Assembly: GCA_031555955.1 (NCBI GenBank)
Contig: JAVBTY010000025.1
Location: 33,205-97,204, forward strand
Reading direction: 5' to 3'
Source of the DNA: Rhodocyclaceae bacterium
GTDB lineage: Bacteria; Pseudomonadota; Gammaproteobacteria; Burkholderiales; Rhodocyclaceae
DNA: 64,000 bases
The number at the start of each line of letters is the position of its first letter. Positions within the stretch are counted from its first letter, which is position 1. Below are positions 20,157-48,853 of this stretch, one piece after another. Made by a program: the position numbers and the translations under genes. The notes below the pieces were generated by a model. It worked only from the letters and a program-made list of their open reading frames with translations. It was not told where the DNA came from and made no database searches.

Positions 20157-20514
20157 ACGCCCGCGCTCCAGACACGTGGAGCCGCTCTGCTGTGACGCGG
20201 CTCCGCGTCTCCGGCTCCACGCGCCTCCGGCCCGCTCGGGCCGGAATGTTTTCCACCACCAGACGGCGCGCGCTCAATACGCCCAGACGCTCCGCCGCCG
20301 CGTGCCGGACGAGCGGACCCGCATACGCGCCGGGCAGGCGTTCTTTCGCCAGCCAGACCCGCGGCAGTTTCCATAGCGTGTCGCGGAAGCGCCCATAAAA
20401 AAACGCGAAATGGCCGATTCCCGCCGGGCAGGGTGTTGCCCCTGGCTGCTGCGCGGCAGTCCTTATCCGGCAGGAATCCGGTTCGCCGTATCAGGGTTTT
20501 TCCGCATATATCAC

Positions 20515-30507: not shown

Positions 30508-31020
30508 TCAGGTTTTGTCGTCCTCGCTGCTGAAACCGAACAGCCCGGTGTGTTCATGCCTGCGCACAAGATTCCGCAGGGTGTGGATCAGCTCGCGCGA
30601 ATGCTCTTCTCCCAGCGGCTTGAGCAGATCCTGCTGATGCTGGCGCGCCTTTTCGATCAGGGACGCGATTTTGGCCTCTCCCTTTCTGGTGCTGGCGACG
30701 AGGGTCTGCCGCCGGTCGCCGCCGGTGCTTGTGCGCACAACCAGTTTTTCCGCCTCAAGGCGCTGAACCAGCTTCGATAGCGTTGGCTGCTTGAGCATGG
30801 CCAGGCGGGAGAGCGTGCCGATCGTTTCGCCCGCGCTGCCATTCAGGCTCGCCAGAACCCGCCATTCGGCCATGGACAGGCCCGTCCGCTCCACGTCGTG
30901 GTGGATGTCCCGTGAAATCCAGTAGCTCGCCTGCGCCAGCCAGTACGGCAGATATTCGTCGAGGAAACGGTGCGAGGCGGGGCTCTTCATGTCCTGCCCG
31001 GGTTTTTCAGGATTTGCCAT
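30508..31020 (-). CDS. MarR family transcriptional regulator
   Basis: YLPYWLAQA, EWRVLASL, wHTH QPTLSKLVQRLE, DRR wing. Divergent from the catabolic operon. Start could also be 30990. Confidence 0.88.
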   Translation of the reverse strand: MANPEKPGQDMKSPASHRFLDEYLPYWLAQASYWISRDIHHDVERTGLSMAEWRVLASLNGSAGETIGTLSRLAMLKQPTLSKLVQRLEAEKLVVRTSTGGDRRQTLVASTRKGEAKIASLIEKARQHQQDLLKPLGEEHSRELIHTLRNLVRRHEHTGLFGFSSEDDKT

Positions 31021-31360
31021 GCTAATGAAATTCCGTGGAAAGCAGATTGTTGACCCTGCTGCGCGCTTTGTTCGCCAGACCGCTCTTGCCTGTGTCCATG
31101 AAGCATTAATTGAATCAGAGTGCATTACTTTAACCTGGGAGCGGCTCTTCTGAAATTCCGGGTCTGTGCGGGCGCGCAGACTGGGGAGCAGGAAGTTTTC
31201 CTGGGGACGGGGGGTGGATTACGCCGTCCGGCTCCACGTATCAGCCTTGATGGCTCAGGCATTGATGCCCCGTCATGGAGTCCTCTTTTTCTCTCCAGAT
31301 CATAGTGTCCGCAGAAAGTGTGCGCGAACAGTCAATTCAAAAGCATTGCCAGCCATTTTT

Positions 31361-31376
31361 ACATGAATATTCATGT
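31361..31376. promoter_or_regulatory. Perfect 16-bp palindrome, candidate MarR operator
   Basis: ACATGAATATTCATGT is its own reverse complement and lies in the AT-rich divergent intergenic region. Confidence 0.6.
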
Positions 31377-31623
31377 TTTATTGTGCTCAACATCGTGGTG
31401 ATCGTTAATCCGGAGATGGGGGGATAAATAGGGGCTCAGATATTTCCGGATGCCTGAATTTAAAGGATATCGCCAGCATGGCCGGTGAAGGTATTGGCGC
31501 TGTGCAAGAGGAGTCATGAGTCGATCGCGGTATCCATAAAACCGGCCTGATGCATGAATGTGAAGAAATAAAAATACAGAGACACCTGTTGTAAAAGCAT
31601 TTAAAAATCCAAAGGAGGATGAC

Positions 31624-32595
31624 ATGAAATACCAGAAAAACGAGGCAAAAAGCTGGGCGCTGAAAAATCTTCCCGGCGTTTGCGGGGGAATCATCCAGCC
31701 GCTGAATAGCGATTACAGCATCGACTATGCGGGCACCCGGGCCTGGATTGAACGGCAGATTGAAATGGGCGTTGATTCCATTACCTGCGATGGCGCATGC
31801 GGTGAATGGCTGACGTTTACGGTCGAAGAGCGGAAGAAGATTTACGAAGTGGCCGTGGATGCGGTGGCCGGGCGGGTTCCCCTGCTGGCGAACACCAGCC
31901 ATCCCAGCATCATGGCGGCGGTGGAACTGGCGCAGCATGCGGAGGCGGTTGGCGTTGATGCGCTCATGCACGTGACGCCCTATTCCAATTCGTCTTCGAA
32001 CGAAGGTGTTTTCCAGTATTACAAGTATCTGGCTGACCGGGTGAATATAGGAATCTGCCTGTACAACACGCGCCCGTCCGGGTTCGTTCTTTCGCCTGAA
32101 TTCATCAGGGAGCTGGCGGAGAAAATCCCGAATATCTGCGGCATCAAGCAGGGCATGGGCAGTATCGACCAGACGCTGAAGGCTTATAAGCTCATCGGCG
32201 ACAGGATCGTCGTCGGCGATCCGTTCGAGGATTACTGGCCCGAGCAGATCCGCTATATGCCGGAGACGGCGTTCCAGTTCTGCAATTTCACCCCGGCGCT
32301 TTTCCAGACGCCGCAAAAACCACGCCTGACGCAGTACACGAAACTGCTGAAACAGGGAGAAACCGCGGCGGGGATGAAGATTTACAACGAACTGTCGCCG
32401 CTGCGGATCCTTTTCCATGAAACCCAGGTGGCAAGCCTGATGGGGAAAGGTGTTTTCCCGCTCACCGCGCTGAAATACTGGGCTGAAAAAATTGGCCTGC
32501 CTGGCGGTCCGGTCCGTCCTCCTTTCGAGGCGCTTTCGGATTACATGCGCAAGGCCATCGATACCCGCCTGGCTGAAGCCGGTCTGACCGCGTGA
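31624..32595 (+). CDS. DapA/NAL-family class I aldolase/lyase (not a true DHDPS)
   Basis: G..GE (GACGE), LYN Tyr, GIKQ Schiff-base Lys, GPVRPP; AAGGAGG RBS. Confidence 0.82.
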   Translation: MKYQKNEAKSWALKNLPGVCGGIIQPLNSDYSIDYAGTRAWIERQIEMGVDSITCDGACGEWLTFTVEERKKIYEVAVDAVAGRVPLLANTSHPSIMAAVELAQHAEAVGVDALMHVTPYSNSSSNEGVFQYYKYLADRVNIGICLYNTRPSGFVLSPEFIRELAEKIPNICGIKQGMGSIDQTLKAYKLIGDRIVVGDPFEDYWPEQIRYMPETAFQFCNFTPALFQTPQKPRLTQYTKLLKQGETAAGMKIYNELSPLRILFHETQVASLMGKGVFPLTALKYWAEKIGLPGGPVRPPFEALSDYMRKAIDTRLAEAGLTA

Positions 32596-32649
32596 TTCTT
32601 CATGTGTCTGGCAGTTGCGGACATGAATCAGCAGCCATGAGGAGGCGCG

Positions 32650-33840
32650 ATGATCGGATTCGAGTTATCGGAGGAGCAGCGGCAGCTGCAGGATGTCGCC
32701 AGGCGGTTTGTCGAAAAGGACATCAGGCCCGTTGCGGCGGGCGTGGACCGCATTGCCGATCCCAGAAAGGCCTTCCCCCTGGAGGTAATCAGGAAGGGAT
32801 TCGAGCTGGGTTTTCACTCCCTGCTTATTCCTGAGGAATACGGCGGCGCGGGAGGCTGCACGCTGGATTACGCGGTTTTGCTGGAAGAGCTTGCCGCGGG
32901 CGATATCGGCATGGCGAATGCGTTTCACGTTGTCATGTCGATGTCGGAAATGATCGCCCGCATGGGTACGAAGGAGCAGTGCGAGCGCTGGCTTACCCCG
33001 ATCGCGCAGGACGACACGGGTACGCACCTGATCTGCTTTGGCGCGACGGAACCTTCGGGCGGATCGGAGATTTTCTGTCCCCTTCCCGATCCGAAGCTGG
33101 GCACCCGGACAAGGGCGAGAAGGGATGGCGATCACTACGTCATCAACGGCAGCAAGGTTTTTTCCAGCAATGCCAGCGTATCGCAGCTTTACGGCGTGCT
33201 GGCCCGCAGCGACAGCAGCAGGGCGAATGCTGAATCCTGTTCGGTGTTCTTTTTCCCTGCCGATACCCCCGGTTTTTCCATCGGAACGATTGAAGACAAG
33301 ATGGGACACCGGGCCTCGATGAACGGCGAACTGATTTTCGAGGATATGCGGCTTCCGAAGGAAAACATGCTCGGCAAAGAGGGCGCCGGCTTCGAGACGA
33401 TCAACGCCATTTACGACACCAATGGCGTTGGCACCGGCACGATGGCCGTCGGCGTGGCGCGGGCGGCCTACGAGCAGGCTTTGCAGTACGCGAAAGAGCG
33501 CGAGATCTGGGGGCAGCCGATCGGCAAATACCAGGCTGTGGGGCAGATGCTGGTCGACATGAAGGCGGATCTGGAAATGGCCCGGCTGATGGTGCGCCGC
33601 GTGGCATGGCAAAGCGCGAACCGCAATACCAGCGAGGGCATGCTGCCGCCCAACATGGCCAAGATTTATCCGGCGGAAATGGCGCGACGCGTCACGATCA
33701 AGGCGATGCAGATATTTGGCGGGGCGGGCTACATGAAGGATTACCCGGTCGAAAAATATGTGCGCGATGCGATGGTGCTCCCGATCATCAGCGGCAGCAA
33801 TGAAGTGCTGAAGCATTTCATCGCGCAGCGGATGGTCTGA
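32650..33840 (+). CDS. Acyl-CoA dehydrogenase family protein
   Basis: IPEEYGG, TEPSGGS, NGSKVFSSN, KMGHRAS, QIFGGAGY..DYPVE, I.SGSNE. Confidence 0.92.
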   Translation: MIGFELSEEQRQLQDVARRFVEKDIRPVAAGVDRIADPRKAFPLEVIRKGFELGFHSLLIPEEYGGAGGCTLDYAVLLEELAAGDIGMANAFHVVMSMSEMIARMGTKEQCERWLTPIAQDDTGTHLICFGATEPSGGSEIFCPLPDPKLGTRTRARRDGDHYVINGSKVFSSNASVSQLYGVLARSDSSRANAESCSVFFFPADTPGFSIGTIEDKMGHRASMNGELIFEDMRLPKENMLGKEGAGFETINAIYDTNGVGTGTMAVGVARAAYEQALQYAKEREIWGQPIGKYQAVGQMLVDMKADLEMARLMVRRVAWQSANRNTSEGMLPPNMAKIYPAEMARRVTIKAMQIFGGAGYMKDYPVEKYVRDAMVLPIISGSNEVLKHFIAQRMV

Positions 33841-33902
33841 GCGCAATTCGCTTTGGCGCGGTCGCCAATGCCGTACTTAAAAACAGACAAAAGGGGTTCG
33901 TA

Positions 33903-35231
33903 ATGAGTCTGGACAGTTTATTCAAGCCCAGATCGATCGCGGTGTACGGTGCCTCGGCCACCGACCGGCGCAAGCTCGGCAATACGCTGCTGGCCAATGC
34001 GGCAAATGGTGCGGGCGAAGTCGTAGCGGTGCATCCCGGGGCGGATGTGATCGACGGGATCGGCGCGGTTGCGCGCCTGAATCAGCCCGTGGATCTGGCG
34101 CTGATTTCAGTGCCGGATAAAAGGGTGGAGGCGGCGGTGACTGATGCCGCGGCCGCGGGGACGAAGTGCGCGATCGTCCTGTCATCCGGTTTCGGAGAAA
34201 CAGGACCGGAAGGGCGCGTGGTGCAGGATCGCCTGACCGCCATAGCCAGGTCCGCCGGCATGCGGCTGGTGGGGCCGAACTGCATGGGCGTGGTGAGCAG
34301 CCTGGGCGGGGAGCGCTGGCTGAACGGCTCCTATTTCTGGCGCATCCCGACCACGCCGGGCGGCCTGTCGTTCATCAGCCAGTCGGGCGCGTTCGGAGGC
34401 ATGTTCTTCGGCCATATGCGCGGCAGCAGCCTGGGTTTGTCCCGTTTTCTCAGTGTCGGCAATTCGGCCGATGTCGGGATCACCGACGCGCTGGAGTGGC
34501 TGGGCGACGATCCGCAGACGACGGCGGTCGGCATTTTCGCCGAAGGTTTCGGTGACGGACGGCGCTTCGTCGAGGTCGCGCGCAGGGTTACGGCGCGCAA
34601 ACCCGTCGTGCTGCTCAAGGCCGGGAAGATGGCCGCAGGCGCGAAGGCCGCGGCGAGCCACACCGGCAGCATGGCGGGCAGCCATGCCGCGATCCAGGCG
34701 GGGCTGCGCCGCGCCGGGGTGATCGAGGCGGCGGATACGGAATCGTTCTTCGCCGCGATGGATTCCGCCGCTGCCGGACTGACGGCCAGGGTGGTGCGCA
34801 ACATTGCGGTCGTGACGATTTCCGGCGGCCCCTCCGTTCTCGCGGCGGATGCGGCGGAGCGCGCCGGGCTCGCCTTGCCCGCGCTGGGTGCCGCGACGGT
34901 TGAGCGGCTGCGCGCGCTCGTGCCTTCGTTTGCGGCGCTGGGCAACCCGATCGATCTGACGCCGCAGTGCCCGGCGGACAGTTTCGTGCCCGCCATTGAA
35001 GCGATTTATGCCGATGAGGCTATCGAAGGCGTTGTAGCGATCAATTGCGGGCTGGATCTGCTTCCGTTCGGAGCCGGTATCGCCCGTGGCGTTGCGGCGA
35101 CTGGCAAGCCCACGAGCGCGTTCGTGCTTGATGCGCCTGGCGTTGAAGCGGAAATGGCAAGTGCTGGCGTGCTGCGCTTTCCTTCGCCGGAGCGCGCCGT
35201 CAATGCACTGGCCTGGGGGGGTGGAAAATGA
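33903..35231 (+). CDS. ADP-forming acyl-CoA synthetase, CoA-binding (alpha) subunit
   Basis: PRSIAVYGAS, GPNCMG, SQSG, GNSAD, AASHTG (phospho-His), NPIDL. Confidence 0.88.
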   Translation: MSLDSLFKPRSIAVYGASATDRRKLGNTLLANAANGAGEVVAVHPGADVIDGIGAVARLNQPVDLALISVPDKRVEAAVTDAAAAGTKCAIVLSSGFGETGPEGRVVQDRLTAIARSAGMRLVGPNCMGVVSSLGGERWLNGSYFWRIPTTPGGLSFISQSGAFGGMFFGHMRGSSLGLSRFLSVGNSADVGITDALEWLGDDPQTTAVGIFAEGFGDGRRFVEVARRVTARKPVVLLKAGKMAAGAKAAASHTGSMAGSHAAIQAGLRRAGVIEAADTESFFAAMDSAAAGLTARVVRNIAVVTISGGPSVLAADAAERAGLALPALGAATVERLRALVPSFAALGNPIDLTPQCPADSFVPAIEAIYADEAIEGVVAINCGLDLLPFGAGIARGVAATGKPTSAFVLDAPGVEAEMASAGVLRFPSPERAVNALAWGGGK

Positions 35232-35857
35232 AGACATTGAGCGAATGGGAAAGCAAGCGGCGTCTGGGCGACGGACTGCCGCTCCCGAAAGAAATGCTGG
35301 CAGCGTCGCGCGGGCAGGCGCGGGAGTTCGCCGCCATGGTCGGGGGAGCGGTCGTCGCCAAGGCATCTGGCGTCGCGCACAAAACCGAGGGTGGTCTGGT
35401 GCGCTTCGGCCTCGGCGTGCAGGACATCGAAGCGGCCTGGGATGCGCTGGCCGCCGCCGGGGATGGAACGGTGCTGCTGGCGGAGCAGATCAGCGCCGAT
35501 CTCGAACTGATTGTCGGTGGTTACCGCGATCCGGGTTTCGGCCCGCTGGTCACGATCGGAATCGGCGGCATCGCGGCGGAAATTTTCGGCGATGTCGTCG
35601 CCATCCTCGCGCCGCCTGAAAAAGGGGAAGTCGCGGCGGCCGTGCAACGGCTTGCCGGGCGGCGGCTGCTGGAAGGCATCCGCGGTAAACCGCCGGTGGA
35701 CCTCGAAGCGCTGGAACAGGTCGTGGGCGTGGTTTCCCGGCTGCTCGTTGCGGATGCCACGGTCGCCGAAATCGATTGCAACCCGGTCATGGTGCGCGGG
35801 GGGCAGCCTGTGGTGGCGGATGCGCTGGTGGTGCTGTGCGACGGCGCGCAGCCGTGA
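35228..35857 (+). CDS. ADP-forming acyl-CoA synthetase, ATP-grasp (beta) subunit
   Basis: LSEWESK, HKTEGG, ELIVG..DP.FGP, EIDCNP; ATGA overlap with the alpha subunit. Confidence 0.85.
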   Translation: MKTLSEWESKRRLGDGLPLPKEMLAASRGQAREFAAMVGGAVVAKASGVAHKTEGGLVRFGLGVQDIEAAWDALAAAGDGTVLLAEQISADLELIVGGYRDPGFGPLVTIGIGGIAAEIFGDVVAILAPPEKGEVAAAVQRLAGRRLLEGIRGKPPVDLEALEQVVGVVSRLLVADATVAEIDCNPVMVRGGQPVVADALVVLCDGAQP

Positions 35858-35908
35858 CGGAGCGCACGGTCATGAAAATTTCATCAACCTGGAAACCGGG
35901 AACAGATC

Positions 35909-36781
35909 ATGCAGGAAATTAGCTCTTATCTGGCGCCCCGCCGCCTGGACGAAGCACTGAAAGCGCTGGCCGGGGGCAATGTAACGGTTTTCTGCGGCGG
36001 CACGGATCTGTCACCGCAGACGGAATCCGGCGCGAAGAGGTATCGCGCCGGGCTGATGAACCTGCGCCGTATCGAGGAACTGGCGGGTATCGAGGTTGGC
36101 GGGGACCAGATCCGCATCGGCGCGGCAACGACCATCACTGAAATCCGGCGTCACCAGGCGCTCGGCGATGCCGCGCCGCTGCTGGCCGAAGCCGCGGACC
36201 GCTTCGCCAGCGACCAGATCCGCAATGCGGCCTCGCTGGGCGGCAACCTTTGCAACGCTTCCCCCGCGAGCGACATGAGCCCCGCCTTGCTGGCGCTGAA
36301 CGCCAGCGTCGAGCTGGGCTGCTGGCGCGAGGGTGCGGTACGGACGCGTCTGGTGGCGCTGGAGAATTTTTTCGTCGCGCCAGGAAGAACCGTTAAGCGG
36401 GATGACGAACTGATGACCGCGGTGGTTTTCGACCGGCCGCCAGCGGATTTCGTCGGGAAGTTCCGCAAGTCCGGCCCTCGGCCCGCGCTTGAAATATCCA
36501 CCGTTTCCGTGGCGGTAGGCGGTCGGCTTGCGAACGGTGGATTCCACAACGTGCGCGTGGCGCTGGGCTCGGTTGCCCCCACGCCGCTGCGCGCGCGCAG
36601 GGTCGAAGCCGTGCTTGAAGGCCGGCCGCTGGATGCCTTGCGGATTGCCGCCGCCGTCGCCTGTGCCGGAGAGGATGCCAGGCCCATCGATGACGTGCGC
36701 GCAAGCGCGTGGTATCGCGATCATCTTGTCCGTGTATTCATTGAAGAGGTTCTGAACGATGTCTCTGGAAACCAGCATTAA
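35909..36781 (+). CDS. Xanthine dehydrogenase family FAD-binding (medium) subunit
   Basis: GGTDL, IGAATT, QIRNAASLGGNLCNASPASD, PIDDVRASA.YR. Confidence 0.9.
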   Translation: MQEISSYLAPRRLDEALKALAGGNVTVFCGGTDLSPQTESGAKRYRAGLMNLRRIEELAGIEVGGDQIRIGAATTITEIRRHQALGDAAPLLAEAADRFASDQIRNAASLGGNLCNASPASDMSPALLALNASVELGCWREGAVRTRLVALENFFVAPGRTVKRDDELMTAVVFDRPPADFVGKFRKSGPRPALEISTVSVAVGGRLANGGFHNVRVALGSVAPTPLRARRVEAVLEGRPLDALRIAAAVACAGEDARPIDDVRASAWYRDHLVRVFIEEVLNDVSGNQH

Positions 36782-37238
36782 TTTCAGGCTCAACGGCCGC
36801 GCGGTTTCGGTCAGGGTGCCGGTGGAGATGAAAACCCTGACGATGCTGCGCGAGGTTCTGGGGCTGACCGGAACCAAATACGCGTGCGGCGAAGGTGAAT
36901 GCGGCGCCTGCACGGTGCAGGTAGACGGCAAAACCCTGAACAGCTGCCTGATGTACGCCGTGGATTGCGATGGCCGCGAAGTGATGACGATCGAAGGGAT
37001 GAAAACGGCGGAAGGCCTGCATCCGATGCAGCAGGCGTTCGTCGATCACGGCGCGATCCAGTGTGGGTACTGCATGCCGGGAATGATCCTGCAGGCGAAC
37101 TACCTGGTGGAAGGTAATCCCGGTCTGACGCGCGAGGAGGCGCAGCGCGGGCTGGAAGGAAATCTTTGCCGCTGCACCGGTTACACCAAGGTGCTGGATG
37201 CGGTGACTTCCTGCGCCGCGAAAAAGGGCGGCTGCTGA
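36759..37238 (+). CDS. Xanthine dehydrogenase family 2x[2Fe-2S] (small) subunit
   Basis: C-GEGE-CGAC...SC, QCGYC, NLCRCTGY. Confidence 0.93.
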   Translation: MSLETSINFRLNGRAVSVRVPVEMKTLTMLREVLGLTGTKYACGEGECGACTVQVDGKTLNSCLMYAVDCDGREVMTIEGMKTAEGLHPMQQAFVDHGAIQCGYCMPGMILQANYLVEGNPGLTREEAQRGLEGNLCRCTGYTKVLDAVTSCAAKKGGC

Positions 37239-37315
37239 CCGGCGCGGCGGCGGGCGCGTGAGCGGCGTTAAATGTCGCGCTCATGGTGGTGGAGACTACA
37301 TAAGAGAACAATGTC

Positions 37316-39637
37316 ATGGAACAGAAAAGCGGCGGTTCGTGCATCGCAAAAACAACCCTGATCGGCCAGCGCATCAAAAAACCCGATGCGCCCGAAAAGT
37401 CGACCGGTAAAACCCGGTATATCAACGATATGGTTTTGCCGCAGATGCTGATCGGCAAGATCCTGCACGCGGGGCGCGCGCACGCGAAAATCCTTGGCAT
37501 CGATACCTCGGAGGCCGAGCGGCTGCCCGGCGTGCATGCGGTACTCACCGGCAAGGATGCGGCGGGGCTCAGATTCGGCTTCGTGCGCGACAACGTCGCG
37601 CTCAAGGACAAGGTGCGCTGCGAGCATGACGAAGTCGCGGCGGTGGCCGCCGAAACTGAAGAGATCGCACTCAGGGCGATCGGTCTGATCAGGGTGGAGT
37701 ACGAGGACCTGCCCGGCGTTTATTCGCCGGAGGAAGGAAGCCGGAAAGACGCGCCGCAGATTCACGACAATTTCCCCGAAAACAAAAGTCTGCGCTTTGA
37801 GTTCAGGCATGGCGATCTGGCGGCGGCCGAAGCGGCTTCCGACTTCATTGTTGATAACGTGTTCAGGCCGCACCACGTCACCCATTGCTGCATGGGCACG
37901 TCCTGCGCGATTGCCGATTTCGATAGCAACGGCAAGCTCACCATCTGGTCGCAGACCCAGTATCCGTACAACTACAAAATGGACCTCGCGCCCGCACTGG
38001 GCATACAGCCGGGCGACATCCGCGTGATCCAGCCGCCGGTGGGCGGCGCATTCGGAGCCAAGCTCGACGTTTATCCCTACGAACCGATCGCCGCCCTGCT
38101 GGCGAAGAAGACGGGCCGCCCGGTCAAACTGACCTATACGCGCGAGGAGGAATTCAAATGTTCCCCCACGCGCCAGCCAGCGGTCATCCACATGCGCACC
38201 GGCTGCACGCGTGATGGGGTGCTGACGTTCCGCAGCGCCGACGTGCTGCTGGATAACGGCGCGTATACCTCATGGGGGCCGACAATCCCGGTGATCATGA
38301 TGCGCACGACCTCCGGGCATTACCGGGTGCCGGTGGTCGATTTCAAGGCGCAGGCGATCTACACGAACAATCCCTATGCAGGGTCGTTCCGCGGTTACGG
38401 CAACGTGCAGACGACGTTCGCGACCGCCCAGCAGATGGACATGCTGGCCGACATGGTGGACATCGATCCGCTCGAATTCCATCTGAAGAATGCGCAGAAA
38501 TCCGGCGAGGTCACGCCACAGAAATCGTTTTTGCGCGAATGCGTGCTGGCGGAATGTCTGGAAACAGCGGCGCGGGCCAGCGACTACAGCCGCAAGCGCA
38601 AGGAATACGCGGCGGAAAGGGACAAACCGGGGCGCTACAAGAAAGGGATCGGCCTGGCCTCGTCGATCCATAACGCGGGCGGCGCGAAAATCCACAAATC
38701 GGACGGCTGCGGCACGATGCTGAAAGTGGACGATTTCGCGCGGGTTCTTGTGATTACCGGCGCCTCGGAAATCGGACAGGGCATCGATGCGGTCGTCAGC
38801 CTGATCGTCGCCGAAGAACTGGGCGTGCCGATCGAGCATGTCACGCTCGTCAACAACGATTCGGATATCGCGCCGTGGGATGTCGGCGTGCACGCCTCGC
38901 GCACGACCTTTATTGCCGGCAACGGCGCGCGCCGGGCCGCGCGCAAGGCGAGAAGCCAGATCCTGAACGCAGCATCGAGGGCGCTCGGCGTGGCGGAAGA
39001 GGAACTCGACCTGCGCGGCGGCTTTGTCGTCCGCGATCAGTGCGGCAGCCAGCTCATCAAGCTGGACAGGCTGCTGCGCCAGATGCATTTCCAGGAGGTT
39101 CCGGAACTGGTGATGGTCACGGACTATTACGAGCCGAAAAGCGAGCCGGAAGGCGCGGACCACGCTTCGGATCACTCCGCCGCCTATTCGCACGCGGTGC
39201 ACATCGCCGAAATCACCGTCGATACGCTGACTGGCGAAATCAGGGTCGACAAGATCACCGTGGCGCAGGACGTGGGGCGCGTCATCAACCGCATGGGACT
39301 TGAAGCCCAGATCGAAGGCGGCATCGCGACCGGGCTCGGTTACGGCCTGAGCGAAAACATGCAGCTGGAAAAGGGCATGCTGAAGAACGCCAGCTTCCGC
39401 GACTACAAGCTGATTACCGCGCCGGAAATGCCGCCGCTCGATCTGCATTTCATCGAAAGCAACTGCGCCGAAGGGCCTTATGGGGCCAAGGGCATTGCGG
39501 AACTGCCGACTATCGTTATTTCCCCGGCCATCGCCAATGCGCTGTTCAACGCGACGGGCGTGCGGATTTTCAGCCCGCCGCTGTCGCCAGAAAAGGTCGC
39601 GCGGGCGCTGCACGAAAAACGGCAGGCAAAGGAGTAA
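37316..39637 (+). CDS. Xanthine dehydrogenase family molybdopterin-binding (large) subunit
   Basis: VGGAFGAK, SFRGYG, EIGQG, ASR, QIEGG, GAKGIAE. Confidence 0.93.
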   Translation: MEQKSGGSCIAKTTLIGQRIKKPDAPEKSTGKTRYINDMVLPQMLIGKILHAGRAHAKILGIDTSEAERLPGVHAVLTGKDAAGLRFGFVRDNVALKDKVRCEHDEVAAVAAETEEIALRAIGLIRVEYEDLPGVYSPEEGSRKDAPQIHDNFPENKSLRFEFRHGDLAAAEAASDFIVDNVFRPHHVTHCCMGTSCAIADFDSNGKLTIWSQTQYPYNYKMDLAPALGIQPGDIRVIQPPVGGAFGAKLDVYPYEPIAALLAKKTGRPVKLTYTREEEFKCSPTRQPAVIHMRTGCTRDGVLTFRSADVLLDNGAYTSWGPTIPVIMMRTTSGHYRVPVVDFKAQAIYTNNPYAGSFRGYGNVQTTFATAQQMDMLADMVDIDPLEFHLKNAQKSGEVTPQKSFLRECVLAECLETAARASDYSRKRKEYAAERDKPGRYKKGIGLASSIHNAGGAKIHKSDGCGTMLKVDDFARVLVITGASEIGQGIDAVVSLIVAEELGVPIEHVTLVNNDSDIAPWDVGVHASRTTFIAGNGARRAARKARSQILNAASRALGVAEEELDLRGGFVVRDQCGSQLIKLDRLLRQMHFQEVPELVMVTDYYEPKSEPEGADHASDHSAAYSHAVHIAEITVDTLTGEIRVDKITVAQDVGRVINRMGLEAQIEGGIATGLGYGLSENMQLEKGMLKNASFRDYKLITAPEMPPLDLHFIESNCAEGPYGAKGIAELPTIVISPAIANALFNATGVRIFSPPLSPEKVARALHEKRQAKE

Positions 39638-39680
39638 GGCCCTACAGGCAAAAACAGCGTTTTGCAGCAGGAGCCAGAAA

Positions 39681-41195
39681 ATGAACATTGCAGACTGGAT
39701 CGAAAAATGGGCGCAGGCCGCGCCCGAAAAGATCGCGATCCGCTTTGAAGGCAGTGAAATGACGTATCCGCAGTTCAACGCCGCCATCAAGGCGTGCGCG
39801 GTGATGCTGCGGAATGAACTTGGCATCCGGCCCGGAGATCGCGTCGCCTGGCTGGGGCAGAATCATCCGCAGATTCTCGTTTTCTTTTTCGCCTGCGCGC
39901 GTTTCGGGGCCCTGTTCGTGCCGCTGAACTGGCGGCTCGCGCCCCAGGAGCATGCGCAGATACTGCGGGATTGCGGCGCGTCAGCGGTGTTTGTTGATGA
40001 ACCGTATGTAAGGCAGAGCGAGGCGTTCCGGAACGATCTGCCGCGTTGCCATTTTGTTGAAACAGGCGCGGGAGGAACGCCCGGCTGGTCTGGACTCGAC
40101 GAACTGATGAGGGCTGCGCGGGGGGAGGAGCGCTATCCGGACGCCAGCCTGGATTCCCCCCTGCTCATCATCTACACCTCGGGCACGACCGGTGCGCCGA
40201 AGGGCGCGGTGCTTACGCAGGAGGCGGTGCAGTACAACGCCTTCAACTGCACGATCCTGCATGGCATGACGGGCGAGGACCGGATCCTGACCTTTCTCCC
40301 CCTGTTCCACGTGGGCGGGCTGAACGTCCAGACCACGACGGGGTTTTATGTCGGGGCGACGGTGATCCTGCAACGGATCTTCGACCCCAGGCAGGTTCTG
40401 GATGCGATCATCCGTGAGAAACCGACGCTGACAATCATCCTGCCCGCGCACATGCAGCCGCTGCAAAGCCTGCCGGACTGGGAGCGCGCGGATTTTTCCA
40501 GCCTGCGCGCGGTGCTGACCGGCTCCTGTCCGATCCCCGCCGAAATGGCCGATTACTGGCGCGGACGGGGCATTCCCCTGCTGAACATGTACGGCGCCAG
40601 CGAAACCGCGCCTGTGGCCATCCACCAGATGATTCCCAATTCTTTTGCGACCCGGGGGTCGGTCGGATTTCCGGCGATGCACTGTGAAATACGTATTGTC
40701 GACGTCAATGGAAACGACTGCGGGGTGGATCAGACCGGCGAAATCCTCGTGCGCGGGAAAAACGTCATGGCCTGCTACTGGAACAACGAGAACGCGACCC
40801 GGAACGCGCTCGTCGATGGCTGGTTTCATAGCGGCGATCTGGGGTACGTCGACCGGTGCGGCTGTTATCACATCGTCGACCGCAAGAAAGACATGATCAT
40901 TTCAGGCGGTGAAAACATCTACCCGGCCGAGCTTGAAAGCGTGCTGTCCGAACACCCTGATGTACAGGAAGTCGCGGTTGTCGGGCGGCAGGATCCGCAA
41001 TGGGGGGAAGTGCCGGTCGCGGTTATCGTGCCCAGACAGGGATGCCGGCTGGGCAAGGGAGAAATTCTCGCCTGGCTCGACGGCAGGCTGGGCAGGTACA
41101 AGCATCCGAAAGACATCCTGTTTATGGATGCGCTGCCGAGAAACGAGATGCGCAAAGTGGTCAAGCACGTCCTGCGCAAAATGGTCGTTTCCTGA
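39681..41195 (+). CDS. AMP-forming acyl/aryl-CoA ligase
   Basis: YTSGTTGAPKG, LPLFH, YGASE, GDLG, DRKKDMIISGGENIYP; AGGAG RBS. Confidence 0.92.
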   Translation: MNIADWIEKWAQAAPEKIAIRFEGSEMTYPQFNAAIKACAVMLRNELGIRPGDRVAWLGQNHPQILVFFFACARFGALFVPLNWRLAPQEHAQILRDCGASAVFVDEPYVRQSEAFRNDLPRCHFVETGAGGTPGWSGLDELMRAARGEERYPDASLDSPLLIIYTSGTTGAPKGAVLTQEAVQYNAFNCTILHGMTGEDRILTFLPLFHVGGLNVQTTTGFYVGATVILQRIFDPRQVLDAIIREKPTLTIILPAHMQPLQSLPDWERADFSSLRAVLTGSCPIPAEMADYWRGRGIPLLNMYGASETAPVAIHQMIPNSFATRGSVGFPAMHCEIRIVDVNGNDCGVDQTGEILVRGKNVMACYWNNENATRNALVDGWFHSGDLGYVDRCGCYHIVDRKKDMIISGGENIYPAELESVLSEHPDVQEVAVVGRQDPQWGEVPVAVIVPRQGCRLGKGEILAWLDGRLGRYKHPKDILFMDALPRNEMRKVVKHVLRKMVVS

Positions 41196-41200
41196 AGCCG

Positions 41201-41452
41201 ATGAAAATACGGTATCACGCCTGGCTGAGGGACAGCGTGGGCTGCGCCGGGGAGGAGGTCGCGCTTCCCGCCGGGGTGACGGATGTCGGCAGGCTGCTGG
41301 ACTGGATGTCGACGCGCGGCAAAAGATACGAGGAGGCTTTCGAACTCATCGCGGTTGTGATGGTGCTGGTGAATGGACGCAACGCGGGCAGGAATCATCC
41401 GGTGTGCGACGGGGATGAAATCCAGTTCGTTCCGCCGATTGCGGGAGGATAG
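41201..41452 (+). CDS. MoaD/ThiS family ubiquitin-like sulfur carrier
   Basis: 83 aa, MKIRYHAWLRD...DGDEIQFVPPIAGG, ending in Gly-Gly. Confidence 0.85.
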   Translation: MKIRYHAWLRDSVGCAGEEVALPAGVTDVGRLLDWMSTRGKRYEEAFELIAVVMVLVNGRNAGRNHPVCDGDEIQFVPPIAGG

Positions 41453-41571
41453 GCGGGCTGCTCCGGCCAGGAGATCCGGGAGATTGGTGAAAAGGAGAAT
41501 GGAAAGGATTCTGTAGCAGATCGCTCGCTCAACGTATCTCGTTTCATGAATATAAATAGAGGAGACAGGAG

Positions 41572-42735
41572 ATGAAGAAAGCGTTGTTGTGTCTGGCGCT
41601 GGCCGGTGCGTTTTCCGTGGCGGCGCAGGCGGCGGATAAAATAAAAGTGGGATTCGTCAGCACTCTTTCCGGGCCGGGCGGAGTGCTGGGCGCCGGTATC
41701 CGCGACGGATTCATGCTGGGTATCGAGCATGCCGGAGGCAGACTTGGCGGTATTCCGGTGGAGCTGCTCGTCGAGGACGACCAGCAGAAACCCGATGTTG
41801 CGAAGCAGCTGACTGACAGGCTGCTGAAACGCGACAAGGTTGATTTCATGACTGGCATCGTTTTCCAGAACATCCTGCAGGCGGCGCAAGGCACGGTGTT
41901 TGGCGCGGAAACCTTTTACATCAGCCCCAACACTGGTCCGTCCGATCTGGCGGGGGCGGGGTGCAATCCGTATTTTTTCGCCGTTTCCTGGGCCAGCGAC
42001 AGCTACTCCGAAGCCACGGGCAAGGACGTTACGGACAAGGGGTACAAAAACGTTTTTGTCATCGCGCCTAACTATCCTGGCGGCAAGGATGTGGTGAACG
42101 GATTCAAGCGCTACTACAAGGGCGGCTACGCGGGAGAAACCTACACCAAGCCCGGGCAGCTCGATTACGCCGTGGAGATTTCACAGATCCGCGCGGCGAA
42201 GCCGGATGCCGTGTTTTTTTTCCTGCCCGGCGGCATGGGCGTGAACTTTCTCAAGCAGTGGCACCAGGCCGGGATGGGCAAGGATTTCCCGCTTTTCGGC
42301 ACGGGCTGGTCCTTCGACCAGGACACGCTGGCGGCGGTGGGCGAACCGACGCTGGGGGCGCTCAACGCCTCGCACTGGAACCTGGATCTGGACAACGCAG
42401 CCAACAAAAAGTTTGTTGCCGGTTTCGAAAAGAAATACGGCCGCCTGCCCAACGAGTTCGCCGCGCAGGGCTACGACGCGGCGATGCTTATCGATAGCGC
42501 CGTGCGCGATACCGGAGGGCGGATCGAGGACAAGGCAGCCCTGCGCAAGGCGCTGGAAGCAGCGAATTTCAGATCGGTGCGCGGCGCTTTCCGGTTCAAC
42601 AGGAACCATTTCCCGATCCAGAGCTACTACCAGCGCCAGGTGGTGAAAGATGAGCAGGGCCGTTTCGTGAACAAGACAACCGATACGATCTTTGTCGACC
42701 ACCAGGACGCCTACGTCACGGCCTGCAACATGTAA
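41572..42735 (+). CDS. Liv-type ABC transporter substrate-binding protein (aromatic-acid-binding clade)
   Basis: Signal peptide; TLSGP, EDDQQKP, APNY..GKD, FLPGGMG, SVRG.F.FN.NHFP. Confidence 0.88.
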   Translation: MKKALLCLALAGAFSVAAQAADKIKVGFVSTLSGPGGVLGAGIRDGFMLGIEHAGGRLGGIPVELLVEDDQQKPDVAKQLTDRLLKRDKVDFMTGIVFQNILQAAQGTVFGAETFYISPNTGPSDLAGAGCNPYFFAVSWASDSYSEATGKDVTDKGYKNVFVIAPNYPGGKDVVNGFKRYYKGGYAGETYTKPGQLDYAVEISQIRAAKPDAVFFFLPGGMGVNFLKQWHQAGMGKDFPLFGTGWSFDQDTLAAVGEPTLGALNASHWNLDLDNAANKKFVAGFEKKYGRLPNEFAAQGYDAAMLIDSAVRDTGGRIEDKAALRKALEAANFRSVRGAFRFNRNHFPIQSYYQRQVVKDEQGRFVNKTTDTIFVDHQDAYVTACNM

Positions 42736-42764
42736 AGGAGGAACGGGCGCTTCCAGGCGGACGC

Positions 42765-42786
42765 TCCGGCGGGAGCGCCCGCCGGA
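42765..42786 (+). other. Stem-loop after the substrate-binding-protein gene (mRNA stabiliser or attenuator)
   Basis: TCCGGCGGG-AGCG-CCCGCCGGA, a perfect 9-bp stem with no U tract. Confidence 0.45.
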
Positions 42787-42792
42787 CGCCCT

Positions 42793-43719
42793 GTGACCAT
42801 GACCGGGATCCTTTTTCTTGAGCAATGCCTGAACGGAGTGCAGTTCGGGCTGATGCTGTTTCTTCTGGTGGCGGGCCTGACGCTGATTTTCGGCATCATG
42901 GACCTGATCAATCTGGCGCATGGTTCGCTGTACATGACCGGCGCCTATCTCGTCGCCACGTTCGCGCAGGCCAGCGGTTCCTTCTGGCTCGCGGTTCCGC
43001 TGGGGATCGCTGCTACCGCTGCTGTGGGCATGATGGTTGAGGTTCTTGTCCTGCGCGGTCTTTACCGGCGGGATCACCTGAGCCAGGTGCTCGCTACTTT
43101 CGCGCTGATCCTGATCGCCAACGAAACCACGCGCGCCATCTGGGGTGTGCAGCCGCTCAGGCTCGATGTGCCGCAGGCGCTGTCCGGTTCGGTCGAACTG
43201 CTGCCGGGGCTGCATTATTCCGCCTTCCGGCTCGCCATCATCGCCGTGGGGCTGACCGTCGCCGTGCTGCTCTGGCTGCTGGTGGCGCGCACCCGCGTCG
43301 GCATGCTGGTGCGCGCGGGCGCATCCAACCGCCGCATGGCGACCGCGATGGGGACGAACATTCCATGGCTGTTCACCGCCGTTTTCGGCGTCGGCGCGGC
43401 CTTGTGCGCGCTGGCCGGGGCGATGCTCGGGCCGCTGCTGGAGGTGCAGGTCGGCATGGGCGAGAGCGTGCTGATCCTCGCTTTCATCACCGTGGTTATC
43501 GGTGGAACCGGTTCGATGCGCGGCGCTTTTGTCGGCGCCCTGCTCGTCGGCATCATCGATACCTTCGGGCGCGCTTTCATTCCGTCCGCCCTCAGGGCCG
43601 TGCTGCCGCCGTCGTTCGCCGATGCCGCCGGTCCTTCGCTGGCCGCGATCTCCATTTATCTGCTGATGGTGATCGTGCTGTTCTGGAAACCACGGGGGCT
43701 ATGCCCCGCTGGGGGCTGA
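42793..43719 (+). CDS. Liv-type ABC permease (LivH-like)
   Basis: GLTLIFG...INLAHG, VIGGTGS. Confidence 0.9.
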   Translation: MTMTGILFLEQCLNGVQFGLMLFLLVAGLTLIFGIMDLINLAHGSLYMTGAYLVATFAQASGSFWLAVPLGIAATAAVGMMVEVLVLRGLYRRDHLSQVLATFALILIANETTRAIWGVQPLRLDVPQALSGSVELLPGLHYSAFRLAIIAVGLTVAVLLWLLVARTRVGMLVRAGASNRRMATAMGTNIPWLFTAVFGVGAALCALAGAMLGPLLEVQVGMGESVLILAFITVVIGGTGSMRGAFVGALLVGIIDTFGRAFIPSALRAVLPPSFADAAGPSLAAISIYLLMVIVLFWKPRGLCPAGG

Positions 43720-43721
43720 TC

Positions 43722-44663
43722 ATGACAGGAGTTGTCCGTTACGGCCCGCTTGCCGCTGGCGTGCTGCTCGCGCTGGCGTTCCCCGTGCTCGCGATGATGT
43801 CCGGGCAGGAGTTTTACATTACGGTCGCCAGCCGCATGCTGATCTGGGCCCTGTTCGCCAGCAGTCTCAACCTGCTCGTGGGCACGGGCGGCATGGTCAG
43901 CATGGGGCATGCCGCATTTTTCGGCGTCGGCGCCTATGTGGCGGGGATCGTGGCGCAGGATGCGCCGCACTGGTCGGGGGCTGCAATGGTGCTGCCGCTG
44001 GCGATGCTGGCCGCCAGCACACTGGCGCTGGTTGTGGGGGCTATCTGCCTGCGCACGCGCGGTGTTTATTTCATCATGATCACGCTGGCGTTCGCGCAGA
44101 TGCTTTTCTACGTGTTCATTTCGCTCAAAAGCTACGGCGGGGAAGACGGCCTGACGCTGGCCCGGCGCGCGCCGTTCGCCGGGCTGGATATGGGCAGCGA
44201 TACGGTTTTTTACTACGTGGTTCTGGCGCTGTCCGGCTGCTGTCTTGTCTTTCTGGCCAGGCTGCGCAATTCACGTTTTGGGCGCGTGCTGCGTGGCATC
44301 AAGGACAACGAGGCGCGCATGGAAGCGCTCGGTTACGCCACGTTCCGGTTCAGGCTGACCGCTTTTGTTATCGCCGGTGCGCTGGGCGGACTGGCCGGCG
44401 CGCTGATGGCGAACCAGAACGGTTTTGTCAGCCCCGGCATGTTTTACTGGAACCAGTCTGGTATCGCCCTCGTCATGGTTATTCTCGGCGGCCTGGGCAG
44501 TCTGTGGGGCGGTCTTGCGGGGGCGCTGGCGTATCTGGTGCTGGAGGAGGTGCTGGTCGTGTTCACTCCGCACTGGCAGATCGTGCTCGGCCTGATCCTG
44601 CTCGCCGTAGTGTTTTTCGCGCCACGGGGCATTGCGGGTCTTTTTGCGGGGAAAACGCGATGA
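43722..44663 (+). CDS. Liv-type ABC permease (LivM-like)
   Basis: G.VSMGHAAFFG, YFIMITLAF, GGEDG, VILGGLG; start trimmed to MTGVVRY. Confidence 0.9.
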   Translation: MTGVVRYGPLAAGVLLALAFPVLAMMSGQEFYITVASRMLIWALFASSLNLLVGTGGMVSMGHAAFFGVGAYVAGIVAQDAPHWSGAAMVLPLAMLAASTLALVVGAICLRTRGVYFIMITLAFAQMLFYVFISLKSYGGEDGLTLARRAPFAGLDMGSDTVFYYVVLALSGCCLVFLARLRNSRFGRVLRGIKDNEARMEALGYATFRFRLTAFVIAGALGGLAGALMANQNGFVSPGMFYWNQSGIALVMVILGGLGSLWGGLAGALAYLVLEEVLVVFTPHWQIVLGLILLAVVFFAPRGIAGLFAGKTR

Positions 44664-44683
44664 ACGCACGCGAGGAAGGTGCA

Positions 44684-45451
44684 ATGAACATGCCGCTGCT
44701 GGAAACGCGCGCGCTCTGCAAGCGTTTTGGCGGTCTGGTCGCCACCAGTTCGGTATCGCTGGCGATCCGGCGCGGTGAATGCCATGCCGTGATCGGCCCC
44801 AACGGGGCGGGCAAGACGACGCTGATCGGCCAGCTTTCAGGCAGTCTGCGTCCCGATACCGGGTCGGTGCATTTTGCCGGACGCGATGTGACGCGCCTCG
44901 GGGCCCATCGTCGCGCCGCGCTGGGTCTTGCGCGCTCGTTCCAGATCACCAGCGTCCTGAATGATTTCAGCGTGGCCGAAAACGTTGGCATTGCCCTGCA
45001 GGCGGTAAGCGGATCGAGTTTCCGTTTCTGGCGACCGGTTGCCACCGAAAAAAAACTGGCGGCTGATGCCGTGGAAATCCTGCGTCAGGTGGACCTGGAG
45101 CCGCTCGCGTCACGCCAGGCGCGCGGGCTGTCGCATGGTGAGCACCGTCAGCTTGAAATCGCGCTGGCCCTGGCGGTGCGACCGCAGCTGATGCTGCTCG
45201 ACGAACCGATGGCGGGCATGGGGCCGGATGAGTCTGAACGCATGGTGCGGCTCATCGCCGGGCTTAAGGGACGCTATACCGTTTTACTGGTTGAACACGA
45301 CATGGATGCGGTCTTCCGCCTTGCCGACCGGATCTCGGTGCTTGTCGCCGGGAGCATCGTCGCAACCGGCACGGCGGATCAAATCCGCGCCTGCCGGGAA
45401 GTCAGAACCGCCTATCTGGGCGAGGAGACGGTGAATGGGCAATCTGCTTGA
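44684..45451 (+). CDS. Liv-type ABC ATP-binding protein (LivG-like)
   Basis: GPNGAGKT, LSHGE, LLDEPMAG, VEHDMD, VRTAYLG. Alternative start at 44660. Confidence 0.9.
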   Translation: MNMPLLETRALCKRFGGLVATSSVSLAIRRGECHAVIGPNGAGKTTLIGQLSGSLRPDTGSVHFAGRDVTRLGAHRRAALGLARSFQITSVLNDFSVAENVGIALQAVSGSSFRFWRPVATEKKLAADAVEILRQVDLEPLASRQARGLSHGEHRQLEIALALAVRPQLMLLDEPMAGMGPDESERMVRLIAGLKGRYTVLLVEHDMDAVFRLADRISVLVAGSIVATGTADQIRACREVRTAYLGEETVNGQSA

Positions 45452-46145
45452 AATCGAAGGGCTCGAAAGTTTCTACGGTGCAAGCCAGGCCCTGTTCGGC
45501 ATCGGGCTGTGCATTGCGCCGGGTGAAATGGTGACGCTGCTTGGGCGCAACGGCATGGGTAAAACCACCACGGTGCACAGCATTACCGGACTGGTGCGTC
45601 CGCGCGGCGGCACGGTGCGGTTTCGCGGCGAAGCGATTCACGGGCTGGACGCGGACCGTATCGGCCGCGCCGGCATTGGACTGGTACCGGAAGGGCGGCA
45701 GATTTTCCCGAATCTGACGGTGCGCGAAAATCTGGTGGCGTGGGCGTCGAACCGTAGCGGCGCGGCCGATCCATGGACGCTCGACAAGGTGTTCGCCTTC
45801 TTTCCGCGCCTGGCCGAACGCCAGAAAAACATGGGCAATCAGCTCTCGGGCGGCGAACAGCAGATGCTGGCGATCGGCCGTGTGCTGATGACCAATCCGT
45901 ACCTGATCATTCTTGACGAGGCCACCGAAGGACTCGCACCGCTGGTGCGGGAGGAAATCTGGCGCTGCCTGGTCAGCCTCAAGGCCAGCGGCCTGGCGGT
46001 GCTGGTGATCGACAAGTATGTGCGCAAACTCATCGCCATCGCCGACCGCCACTACATCCTGGAGCGCGGCAGCATCCGCTGGGAAGGCAGCTCCGCAGCG
46101 CTGGCTGCGAAGCCGGAACTCTGGCAGCGCTATCTGGGGGTGTGA
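45435..46145 (+). CDS. Liv-type ABC ATP-binding protein (LivF-like)
   Basis: GRNGMGKT, VPEGR, LSGGEQQMLAIGR, LDEATEGLAP. Confidence 0.92.
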   Translation: MGNLLEIEGLESFYGASQALFGIGLCIAPGEMVTLLGRNGMGKTTTVHSITGLVRPRGGTVRFRGEAIHGLDADRIGRAGIGLVPEGRQIFPNLTVRENLVAWASNRSGAADPWTLDKVFAFFPRLAERQKNMGNQLSGGEQQMLAIGRVLMTNPYLIILDEATEGLAPLVREEIWRCLVSLKASGLAVLVIDKYVRKLIAIADRHYILERGSIRWEGSSAALAAKPELWQRYLGV

Positions 46146-48210: not shown

Positions 48211-48382
48211 GGTGCGGTCTCTGGCAATCCGGTTGGGGGAGGGACTATAGCAAAGCAGTTCCGGTGGTGTTTTATTGCTGAAAAAACCGGATTTATCAAC
48301 CTGAAAGGCTGGGGGGCGAGGTTTGTGCCCGGATATCCGGGGCAGAACCAGAGGTATTGACCCGTTTATGGGGGCAGGGCCG

Positions 48383-48853
48383 TCAACCCCGGCCGAAGAA
48401 GCGCCCGATGGCGCGGGAGAACCAGCCCGTCGTCTCTTTCGTGGCGTAGGCCTGGTCTGGCATGTTCTTTTTTGCCGACCGGGCAAAGGCGGCATCCTCG
48501 CTGCGGATATGGCTGAAGAGCCAGCGCGACAGAAGGCGGTGCAGTTCATCCGTAACGTTTTCACCGTCCTTGAAGCGCGTCTGCATTTCGGCGACACGGC
48601 GGACGAAGATGTCATGGACTTTTTTGTGCGGACGGAAAAATTCGTAACCGCTATCTTCCATCAGCGTTTCTTCGAAAGCGAAATGGGAGAGGGTGTAATC
48701 GACCAGACCATCGATAATGCCGCCGATGGCGGTGCGGTCGCCCCCGGCCGTTGCGTCATGAAGATGGTTGATGAAGTCCATGATCTGGCGGTGCTGGTGA
48801 TCGATCACATCAATGCCTGTATCCAGGTCATGAGTCCAGATCAGATGCGCCAT
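48383..48853 (-). CDS. Bacteriohemerythrin
   Basis: W...L.TG...ID.QH, HF..EE, H...H, WL..HI...D di-iron ligands; AGGAG RBS. Confidence 0.9.

Follow-up and report, generated by a model that had tools for sequence, protein, structure and literature searches.

A probable sister architecture to the anaerobic indoleacetate pathway in a Rhodocyclaceae bacterium

Indoleacetate, the main auxin, commonly arises from tryptophan, and, to our knowledge, its oxygen-free removal (be it in sediments, groundwater, sludge or rhizospheres) is known to proceed by one pathway only, which has been studied in a single genus. This iaa pathway was reportedly the subject of studies by Ebenau-Jehle in 2012 and by Schuhle in 2016, the former of which is said to have assigned C2 hydroxylation to its molybdenum (Mo) enzyme. 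The iaa cluster has been described for anaerobic indoleacetate degradation in Aromatoleum aromaticum EbN1 and A. evansii KB740 (PMC8360864), and its Mo enzyme is credited with that same reaction, i.e., C2 of the pyrrole ring is hydroxylated in a water-dependent manner to give the 2-oxo form (PMC8360864, PMC9613470). Here we describe a related locus within 64,000 nucleotides of a Rhodocyclaceae bacterium (assembly GCA_031555955.1, contig JAVBTY010000025.1, positions 33,205 to 97,204 of the forward strand), the whole of which is referred to as the window and supplies the coordinates used below unless another locus is named. The element in question is an operon of 14 co-oriented genes (31624 to 46145) that are separated by short gaps or overlap, preceded by a divergent gene for a MarR-family regulator. 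This layout and the domains that a preliminary description had given for it were confirmed by the listing of open reading frames and the Pfam/NCBIfam scans, and the same scans found no oxygenase, hydantoinase, B12 mutase or crotonase within the block, so that the lack of an oxygenase and of the hydantoinase and B12 mutase of the iaa pathway, noted in that description, also holds.

Our reading is that the operon probably serves a MarR-controlled, oxygen-independent catabolism of indole-3-acetate and is a sister architecture to the iaa pathway. Judged by the sequences, it would be a conserved variant of that pathway, in which the top is shared and the bottom module is replaced.

One molybdoenzyme in two cluster architectures

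A scan with the large subunit of the Mo hydroxylase (XdhL), for which one genome per species was used, returned the 80 closest loci, at 66-87% identity. The architecture of the window, hereafter type A, was seen in 14 of these, with the gene set as in the window and the order mostly kept; of the remaining 66, every one with sufficiently long flanks has the gene set of a canonical iaa cluster. The canonical arrangement is exemplified by Aromatoleum buckelii U120 (locus L007), where a ligase, hydantoinase A, hydantoinase B, an acyl-CoA dehydrogenase-fold protein (ACAD) and the small and large subunits of the B12 mutase are followed by XdhM, XdhS and XdhL, a MoaD-like protein, a family III CoA-transferase and a binding protein. 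The ACAD of that locus bears the GGG motif, which is diagnostic of IaaF according to Schuhle et al. 2021 (PMC8360864). Neither the hydantoinase-like IaaA/IaaE nor IaaGH nor IaaL was present in the window cluster or in any of the 14 type A loci.

The type A gene set is no chance juxtaposition. Conservation of the cluster, on which the preliminary description had made its reading depend, is there, as the core (DapA-like protein, ACAD, synthetase alpha and beta, XdhM, XdhS and XdhL, ligase) recurs in 13 of 13 related loci of sufficient length, all of them in metagenome-assembled genomes (MAGs), and the DapA-like protein, the ACAD and both synthetase subunits travel together in every one of these. 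The MoaD-like gene was likewise detected in each type A locus that reaches far enough, and identities over the whole set are 47-91%. Across type A, identity to the window amounts to 77-85% for the DapA-like protein, 77-91% for the ACAD, 77-86% for synthetase alpha, 60-72% for the ligase and 47-64% for the MoaD-like protein, and the architecture belongs to uncultured Beta- and Gammaproteobacteria, where no fewer than 15 species-level genomes carry it. Full-text literature searches brought up no description of it, which leaves standing the earlier view of a catabolic cluster that acts on an aromatic carboxylate by way of CoA and a molybdoenzyme and that, as a whole, is undescribed in the literature searched. 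One gammaproteobacterial type A locus has a phage-type integrase gene directly after the MoaD-like gene (L047:14126-15133, - strand), an arrangement consistent with horizontal movement of the block.

The molybdopterin subunit XdhL (37316..39637, + strand) is, by identity and by tree, an orthologue of the iaa enzyme. It is 81-91% identical to XdhL of canonical iaa clusters, e.g., that of A. buckelii, and 66-79% identical to XdhL of more distant ones; taken with the other type A loci, the canonical betaproteobacterial clusters span 81-87%. In the maximum-likelihood tree the type A sequences branch from within the iaa radiation, the A. buckelii enzyme being a member of the same clade (SH-aLRT 98). 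On average, XdhL sequences are 84.6% identical within type A, 84.5% between the types and 88.6% within iaa, and among 773 positions none strictly, and just one nearly, separates the 14 type A copies from 43 iaa copies. As XdhL shows no divergence between the types, the sequences provide strong evidence that the Mo enzyme would catalyse the same reaction in type A and in iaa. Its partners, the 290-aa FAD subunit (35909..36781, + strand; FAD_binding_5, CO_deh_flav_C) and the subunit with two [2Fe-2S] clusters (36759..37238, + strand; Fer2, Fer2_2), are 66-77% and 71-84% identical, respectively, to their counterparts in both cluster types. The host MAG contains, on a different contig, two more XDH-family large-subunit genes (G000:C43:13673-26127; 39% and 29% identical), the closer of which reaches 582 bits, short of the cut-off, with the alpha model of 4-hydroxybenzoyl-CoA reductase.

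The AMP-forming acyl-CoA ligase (39681..41195, + strand; AMP-binding domains, AGGAG before the refined start codon) belongs to the same picture. In the ligase tree, the ligases of both cluster types form one clade (SH-aLRT 99) apart from the other AMP-ligases of those loci; within it the type A ligases group together (SH-aLRT 96), and their sister group (100) consists of ligases from Emcibacter-like Alphaproteobacteria with complete iaa clusters, so that the assignment of the window ligase as an IaaB-clade, predicted indoleacetate-activating enzyme is well supported by orthology. The MoaD/ThiS-like protein of 83 aa (41201..41452, + strand, start codon refined) ends in ...PPIAGG, hence in Gly-Gly, passes the cut-off of TIGR01687 and matches the ThiS domain; a full-length homologue occurs in both cluster types at overlapping identities (50-69%), placed after XdhL in most iaa clusters and after the ligase in type A, and the protein probably serves the cofactor of the Mo enzyme. 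Taken together, XdhM, XdhS, XdhL, the MoaD-like protein and the ligase are iaa orthologues or clade-mates, which makes for 5 of the 14 operon genes and 5 of the 9 enzyme and cofactor genes, and the earlier claim of an unassignable substrate and of a cluster standing apart from known pathways finds no support.

The exchanged module and its possible chemistry

The first operon gene (31624..32595, + strand; PF00701) encodes a class I Schiff-base enzyme of the dihydrodipicolinate synthase (DHDPS) fold, i.e., the DapA-like protein. It keeps the Schiff-base lysine (GIKQG; Lys161) and a tyrosine (LYN; Tyr133), whereas the GTTGE motif has become GACGEW (Thr44 replaced) and PYYN has become PYSN (Tyr107 replaced). 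An identity as DapA proper was rejected on account of these two replaced triad residues and of the 122 bits reached against a cut-off of 206 for the dapA model TIGR00674, and the protein stays below all NCBIfam family cut-offs. Its orthologues, 72-100% identical, come exclusively from MAGs and metagenomes, and the next relatives are at most 37% identical. The predicted structure (mean confidence, pLDDT, 92.7) has a DHDPS-like fold for which Foldseek returns generic DHDPS matches that give no hint of the substrate. Schiff-base cleavage is a plausible putative role for this enzyme.

A widespread DHDPS-fold subfamily 32-37% identical to the DapA-like protein of the window was encountered in 3-hydroxyanthranilate/kynurenine clusters of metagenome loci (L100, L131, L135, L103 and L116), next to genes for 3-hydroxyanthranilate dioxygenase, an aldehyde dehydrogenase, an aspartate-dehydrogenase-like protein and a Liv ABC importer, and often also a gene for an XDH-like Mo subunit, the stop codon of which runs into the start of the DapA-like gene. 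A 2-amino-3-carboxymuconate semialdehyde decarboxylase was not seen in the scanned parts of these loci, which could represent an undescribed route for 3-hydroxyanthranilate that perhaps ends in iminoaspartate or aspartate. For these distant relatives, the context is suggestive of enamine or 2-oxo-acid chemistry on tryptophan-derived compounds, which is not transferable to the window protein.

The second gene (32650..33840, + strand) encodes an ACAD-fold flavoprotein with all three ACAD domains. In every type A orthologue the YEG position reads ISG, and the alternative, isovaleryl-CoA-dehydrogenase-type (helix-G) glutamate position is occupied by asparagine, so a canonical acyl-CoA dehydrogenase identity was rejected, the catalytic Glu being gone at both positions. 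The protein is about 31% identical to IaaF and has ISG where the IaaF of L007 has GGG. Since ISG is invariant and the alternative site holds Asn, the enzyme would seem to be mechanistically unusual, like IaaF and yet not IaaF.

Two further genes encode an ADP(NDP)-forming acyl-CoA synthetase, with alpha at 33903..35231 (+ strand; CoA_binding_2, Succ_CoA_lig, Ligase_CoA_2) and the ATP-grasp beta subunit at 35228..35857 (+ strand; ATP-grasp_5), the start of which overlaps the alpha stop. Alpha reaches 352 bits against the TIGR02717 cut-off of 567; its phosphohistidine motif SHTGSMAG is kept in nearly all type A orthologues, and beta contains AHKTEGG. These histidine motifs are diagnostic of NDP-forming acyl-CoA synthetases, and, as both are intact, ATP-coupled thioester chemistry is to be expected, with ATP-conserving release of CoA as a plausible role.

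When these parts are put in order, the ABC importer would take in indole-3-acetate, the IaaB-clade ligase would form indoleacetyl-CoA, and the Mo/FeS/FAD hydroxylase would add a water-derived oxygen at pyrrole C2, giving 2-oxoindole-3-acetyl-CoA; as far as sequence comparison goes, uptake, activation and C2 hydroxylation are well supported. What might follow is offered tentatively, and the particular scheme is rather doubtful. The Glu-less ACAD most likely would act after the hydroxylase, because C3, the carbon beta to the thioester, is sp3 and bears a hydrogen in the 2-oxo product alone, and the enzyme might desaturate the C3-C-alpha bond, with a 3-ylidene oxindole as the simplest product, or take a non-canonical route. 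The synthetase could then free the acid with a gain of ATP, or shift CoA between the carboxyls of a ring-opened arylsuccinate as IaaL does, both of these putative roles (ATP conservation or CoA repositioning) being drawn from the properties of its family. The DapA-like enzyme, through its lysine Schiff base, might remove or rearrange the side chain, and the outcome would be a small C2/C3 acid and an o-aminophenyl compound (isatin/isatinate, anthranilate or 2-aminobenzoyl-CoA), to be consumed by genes elsewhere. The block was earlier called self-contained, which is doubtful, as nothing in it can dispose of the aromatic ring. Other lower-pathway schemes (isatin plus acetyl-CoA; arylfumaryl-CoA hydration plus a lyase; ring expansion; decarboxylation to 2-aminocinnamoyl-CoA) were considered and not adopted, as they give no orthodox 2-oxo acid for the DHDPS-fold enzyme.

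It is conceivable, if somewhat short of probable, that type A takes apart the oxidised pyrrole ring and the side chain of indoleacetate in a new manner that needs no B12 and saves ATP, in which a Glu-less ACAD-fold enzyme would work on an oxindole-acetyl thioester, a DHDPS-fold enzyme on a substrate class new to its family, and an ADP-forming synthetase would recover ATP. Since orthology provides an assignment of the upper pathway, defined substrates allow the lower steps to be tested directly, and their solution would mean new chemistry in three large enzyme families as well as markers for auxin turnover in anoxic habitats. Type A also implies that the costly module of ring opening, mutase and CoA-transferase can be exchanged for four other genes.

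Regulation, surroundings and other readings of the locus

The MarR-family regulator (30508..31125, - strand; Pfam MarR_2/MarR) is 58-74% identical to the MarR of eight other type A loci, as opposed to 26-34% to the MarRs near some canonical iaa clusters. The divergent intergenic region holds a perfect 16-bp palindrome, ACATGAATATTCATGT (31361..31376), whose core ATGAAWATTCAT is also present shortly before the DapA-like gene in nine other, betaproteobacterial type A loci and was not found at the equivalent position in iaa loci; this palindrome is the probable MarR operator. A promoter and terminator scan gave counts no better than chance.

The Liv-type importer at the end of the operon consists of a periplasmic binding protein (41572..42735, + strand; Peripla_BP_6), two permeases (42793-43719 and 43722-44663, + strand; BPD_transp_2 in both) and two ABC ATPases (44660-45451 and 45435-46145, + strand; ABC_tran in both), the start codons of the second permease (43722) and of the first ATPase (44660) having been refined. 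Uptake varies across type A, with the Liv ABC system in six loci including the window, a tripartite ATP-independent periplasmic (TRAP) transporter in L002, a sodium:solute symporter (SSF) in L054 and a major facilitator superfamily (MFS) transporter in L012 and L038, and a carboxylate substrate fits with such an exchange of importers. The binding protein, 83-88% identical across five type A loci, has 4evq, 4ey3, 4evs and 4f06 as its best solved relatives, which we take to be aromatic-acid binders of Rhodopseudomonas palustris.

The block is flanked by PutA, a GTPase, a Sel1-repeat protein and a Cache-domain chemoreceptor, none of which is conserved with it in related loci. The flanking PutA is 79% identical to two NCBI proteins, 69% to one of Azoarcus and 59-64% to proteins that are mainly of Rhodocyclales type (Accumulibacter, Propionivibrio, Azospira, Azonexus), and the chemoreceptor, a methyl-accepting chemotaxis protein with a Cache_3-Cache_2 sensor (46180-48615, - strand), converges on the importer end and is not conserved in other type A loci.

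More is to be seen around the other type A clusters. In an Azonexus MAG (L012), the region directly downstream (15034-20304) encodes an aldehyde dehydrogenase, cytochrome c, an amine dehydrogenase heavy chain, MauE, a MauD-like protein and the light chain; the two dehydrogenase chains score 282 and 192 bits to the aromatic amine dehydrogenase of A. faecalis against 120 and 128-148 to methylamine dehydrogenase, and it is plausible that the operon would supply arylacetate from an arylethylamine, e.g., indoleacetate from tryptamine. A full-length homologue of a fusion of an FAD-monooxygenase with an old yellow enzyme (OYE), presumably the architecture of 2-aminobenzoyl-CoA monooxygenase/reductase, was found in 8 of 15 type A genomes versus 24 of 201 genomes sampled from the same order, a comparison that is only indicative because related genomes are not independent. 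Genes similar to boxR and boxC adjoin the cluster in L038, and only 3 of the 15 type A genomes have subunit B of class I benzoyl-CoA reductase. The genes that neighbour the cluster in other loci suggest that the o-aminophenyl product may enter 2-aminobenzoyl-CoA or benzoyl-CoA metabolism.

Directly upstream of the type A MarR, the genomes of L010 and L040 have a paralogous set of genes (L166:6913-17533 and L167:3321-18750) for hydantoinases A/B (52-54% to iaa), a B12 mutase (36-39%), a ligase, a glutathione S-transferase, a long ACAD, an OYE-like reductase and a second ligase, with a thiolase in addition in L167, the only one of the two scanned for it. The hydantoinase, mutase and ligase of this set are 36-54% identical to the iaa proteins, and the FAD-monooxygenase/OYE fusion lies further upstream of it. 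A malate synthase gene, the sole copy found in either genome, stands between the MoaD-like gene and the importer in the same two loci (L010:14157-15791 and L040:14191-15789); glyoxylate as a pathway product was nevertheless set aside as too weak an idea, since only these two closely related loci show the gene. In Sulfuritalea-like loci, a UbiD-family decarboxylase of the prenylated-FMN type is encoded upstream of MarR (L001:2112-3539 and L002:2165-3565), and it could act on a pathway-linked aromatic or acrylic acid by either decarboxylating or carboxylating it.

As to the host MAG, which comprises 2.38 Mb in 115 contigs and is 81% complete, so that absences there are no proof, it gave no match to hydantoinase B (HydB), no orthologue of the IaaGH mutase (best match 42%, against 66-89% among iaa orthologues) and none of IaaL (best match 30%).

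Several observations weigh against indoleacetate catabolism as the role of the operon. The iaa Mo enzyme itself has been assigned via proteomics and extract activities, not with purified protein; the block encodes no lactam-opening enzyme, and no chemically orthodox role could be devised in it for a pyruvate-type class I lyase, as no obvious 2-oxo acid arises from the indoleacetate skeleton. The binding protein has its nearest relatives outside type A (44-49%) in 3-hydroxyanthranilate clusters, it has no significant match to IaaM, the binding protein of iaa clusters, and the ligase is just 45-50% identical to Aromatoleum-type IaaB. The latter two points would also be explained if the same chemistry were applied to another substrate (indole-3-propionate, 2-oxoindole-3-acetate, a ring-substituted indoleacetate, naphthyl- or phenylacetate), with specificity set by the ligase and the binding protein, both of which have diverged, and the Mo enzyme recognising no more than the indole ring, and a three-carbon side chain would even make an orthodox substrate for a pyruvate-type lyase. 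IaaB is said to accept related arylacetates and indolepropionate, as reported by Schuhle et al. in 2016. Such a substrate is nonetheless unlikely, given that the closest relatives of the ligase sit in complete canonical alphaproteobacterial iaa clusters, that no residue of the Mo subunit separates the cluster types, and that the ACAD step suits an acetyl side chain on an oxindole.

Less likely still, and indeed quite improbable, is that the operon inactivates auxin and harvests energy rather than catabolising it in full: indoleacetate would be activated, oxidised to the inactive 2-oxo form with its electrons passed to the respiratory chain, and released with recovery of ATP, while the ACAD and the DapA-like enzyme would trim the molecule to a limited extent, leaving an aromatic product for excretion or salvage. 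The synthetase retains its two catalytic histidines, the benzoyl-CoA reductase subunit is as rare among the type A genomes as given above, and the host MAG has neither class I benzoyl-CoA reductase B nor the 2-aminobenzoyl-CoA monooxygenase-like fusion nor the iaa lower-pathway orthologues, which counts against full indoleacetate degradation as well, with the reservation that goes with 81% completeness. Four extra conserved enzyme genes and a high-affinity importer would, on the other hand, be a large investment for mere inactivation, and the 2-aminobenzoyl-CoA and benzoyl-CoA genes near several other loci point to degradation of the ring. An unrelated (hetero)aromatic carboxylate (furoate, thiophene- or pyrrole-2-carboxylate, picolinate, hydroxybenzoate) would obey the same general logic of CoA activation followed by Mo hydroxylation, and the nearest solved large subunit is that of 4-hydroxybenzoyl-CoA reductase (370 bits), but the Mo subunit's closeness to the iaa enzyme, its want of type-specific residues and the placement of the ligase within the iaa clade make this highly improbable. 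4-Hydroxybenzoyl-CoA reductase itself was rejected, with 574 bits against a cut-off of 994.6 for its alpha model, and the model of its beta subunit, which has an extra Fe-S insertion, covers mainly residues 8-116 of the FAD subunit. The analogies with furoate, picolinate and nicotinate are unlikely since the five shared genes are of iaa descent, and readings built on them were dropped with the recognition of XdhL as iaa-type, as were proline and pyrrole-2-carboxylate, which the adjacent PutA had prompted and which its absence from the other loci also disfavours. Indoleacetate thus remains, in our opinion, the probable substrate.

Comparison with known systems

With the furoyl-CoA pathway (HmfABCDE) and kindred routes, the window shares a ligase step followed by XDH-family hydroxylation of a heteroaromatic acyl-CoA beside the heteroatom, yet there is no sequence affinity beyond the family, the Mo enzyme of the window being of the iaa type and an HmfE-type hydrolase not being encoded. 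The archaeal and bacterial NDP-forming synthetases (ACD/ACS I-II), of which archaeal ACS II uses aryl-acetyl-CoAs including indoleacetyl-CoA, resemble the enzyme of the window in their two subunits and in both histidine motifs, whereas the alpha subunit of the window stays below the acetate-CoA ligase cut-off and its genes lie inside a catabolic operon. The lyases of the DHDPS/N-acetylneuraminate lyase family (DapA, KdgD, HOGA, pyrroline-4-hydroxy-2-carboxylate deaminase, NahE-type hydratase-aldolases) have the TIM barrel, the Schiff-base lysine and the adjacent tyrosine in common with the DapA-like protein, in which, in contrast to them, the threonine and the second tyrosine of the DapA triad are replaced and which stands apart from all relatives outside its orthologue group.

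The closest system is the iaa pathway, to which the window cluster is linked by the orthologous Mo hydroxylase, the ligase clade and the MoaD-like Gly-Gly protein, as well as by a MarR-type regulator, binding-protein-dependent uptake and an oxygenase-free, CoA-based logic. Where the iaa cluster relies on the hydantoinase-like IaaA/E, the B12 mutase IaaGH, IaaF with its GGG motif and the CoA-transferase IaaL, and hence on an ATP-consuming ring-opening enzyme and a B12-dependent one, neither of which is encoded in the window cluster, the latter has instead a DHDPS-fold enzyme, a Glu-less ACAD and a two-subunit ADP-forming CoA synthetase.

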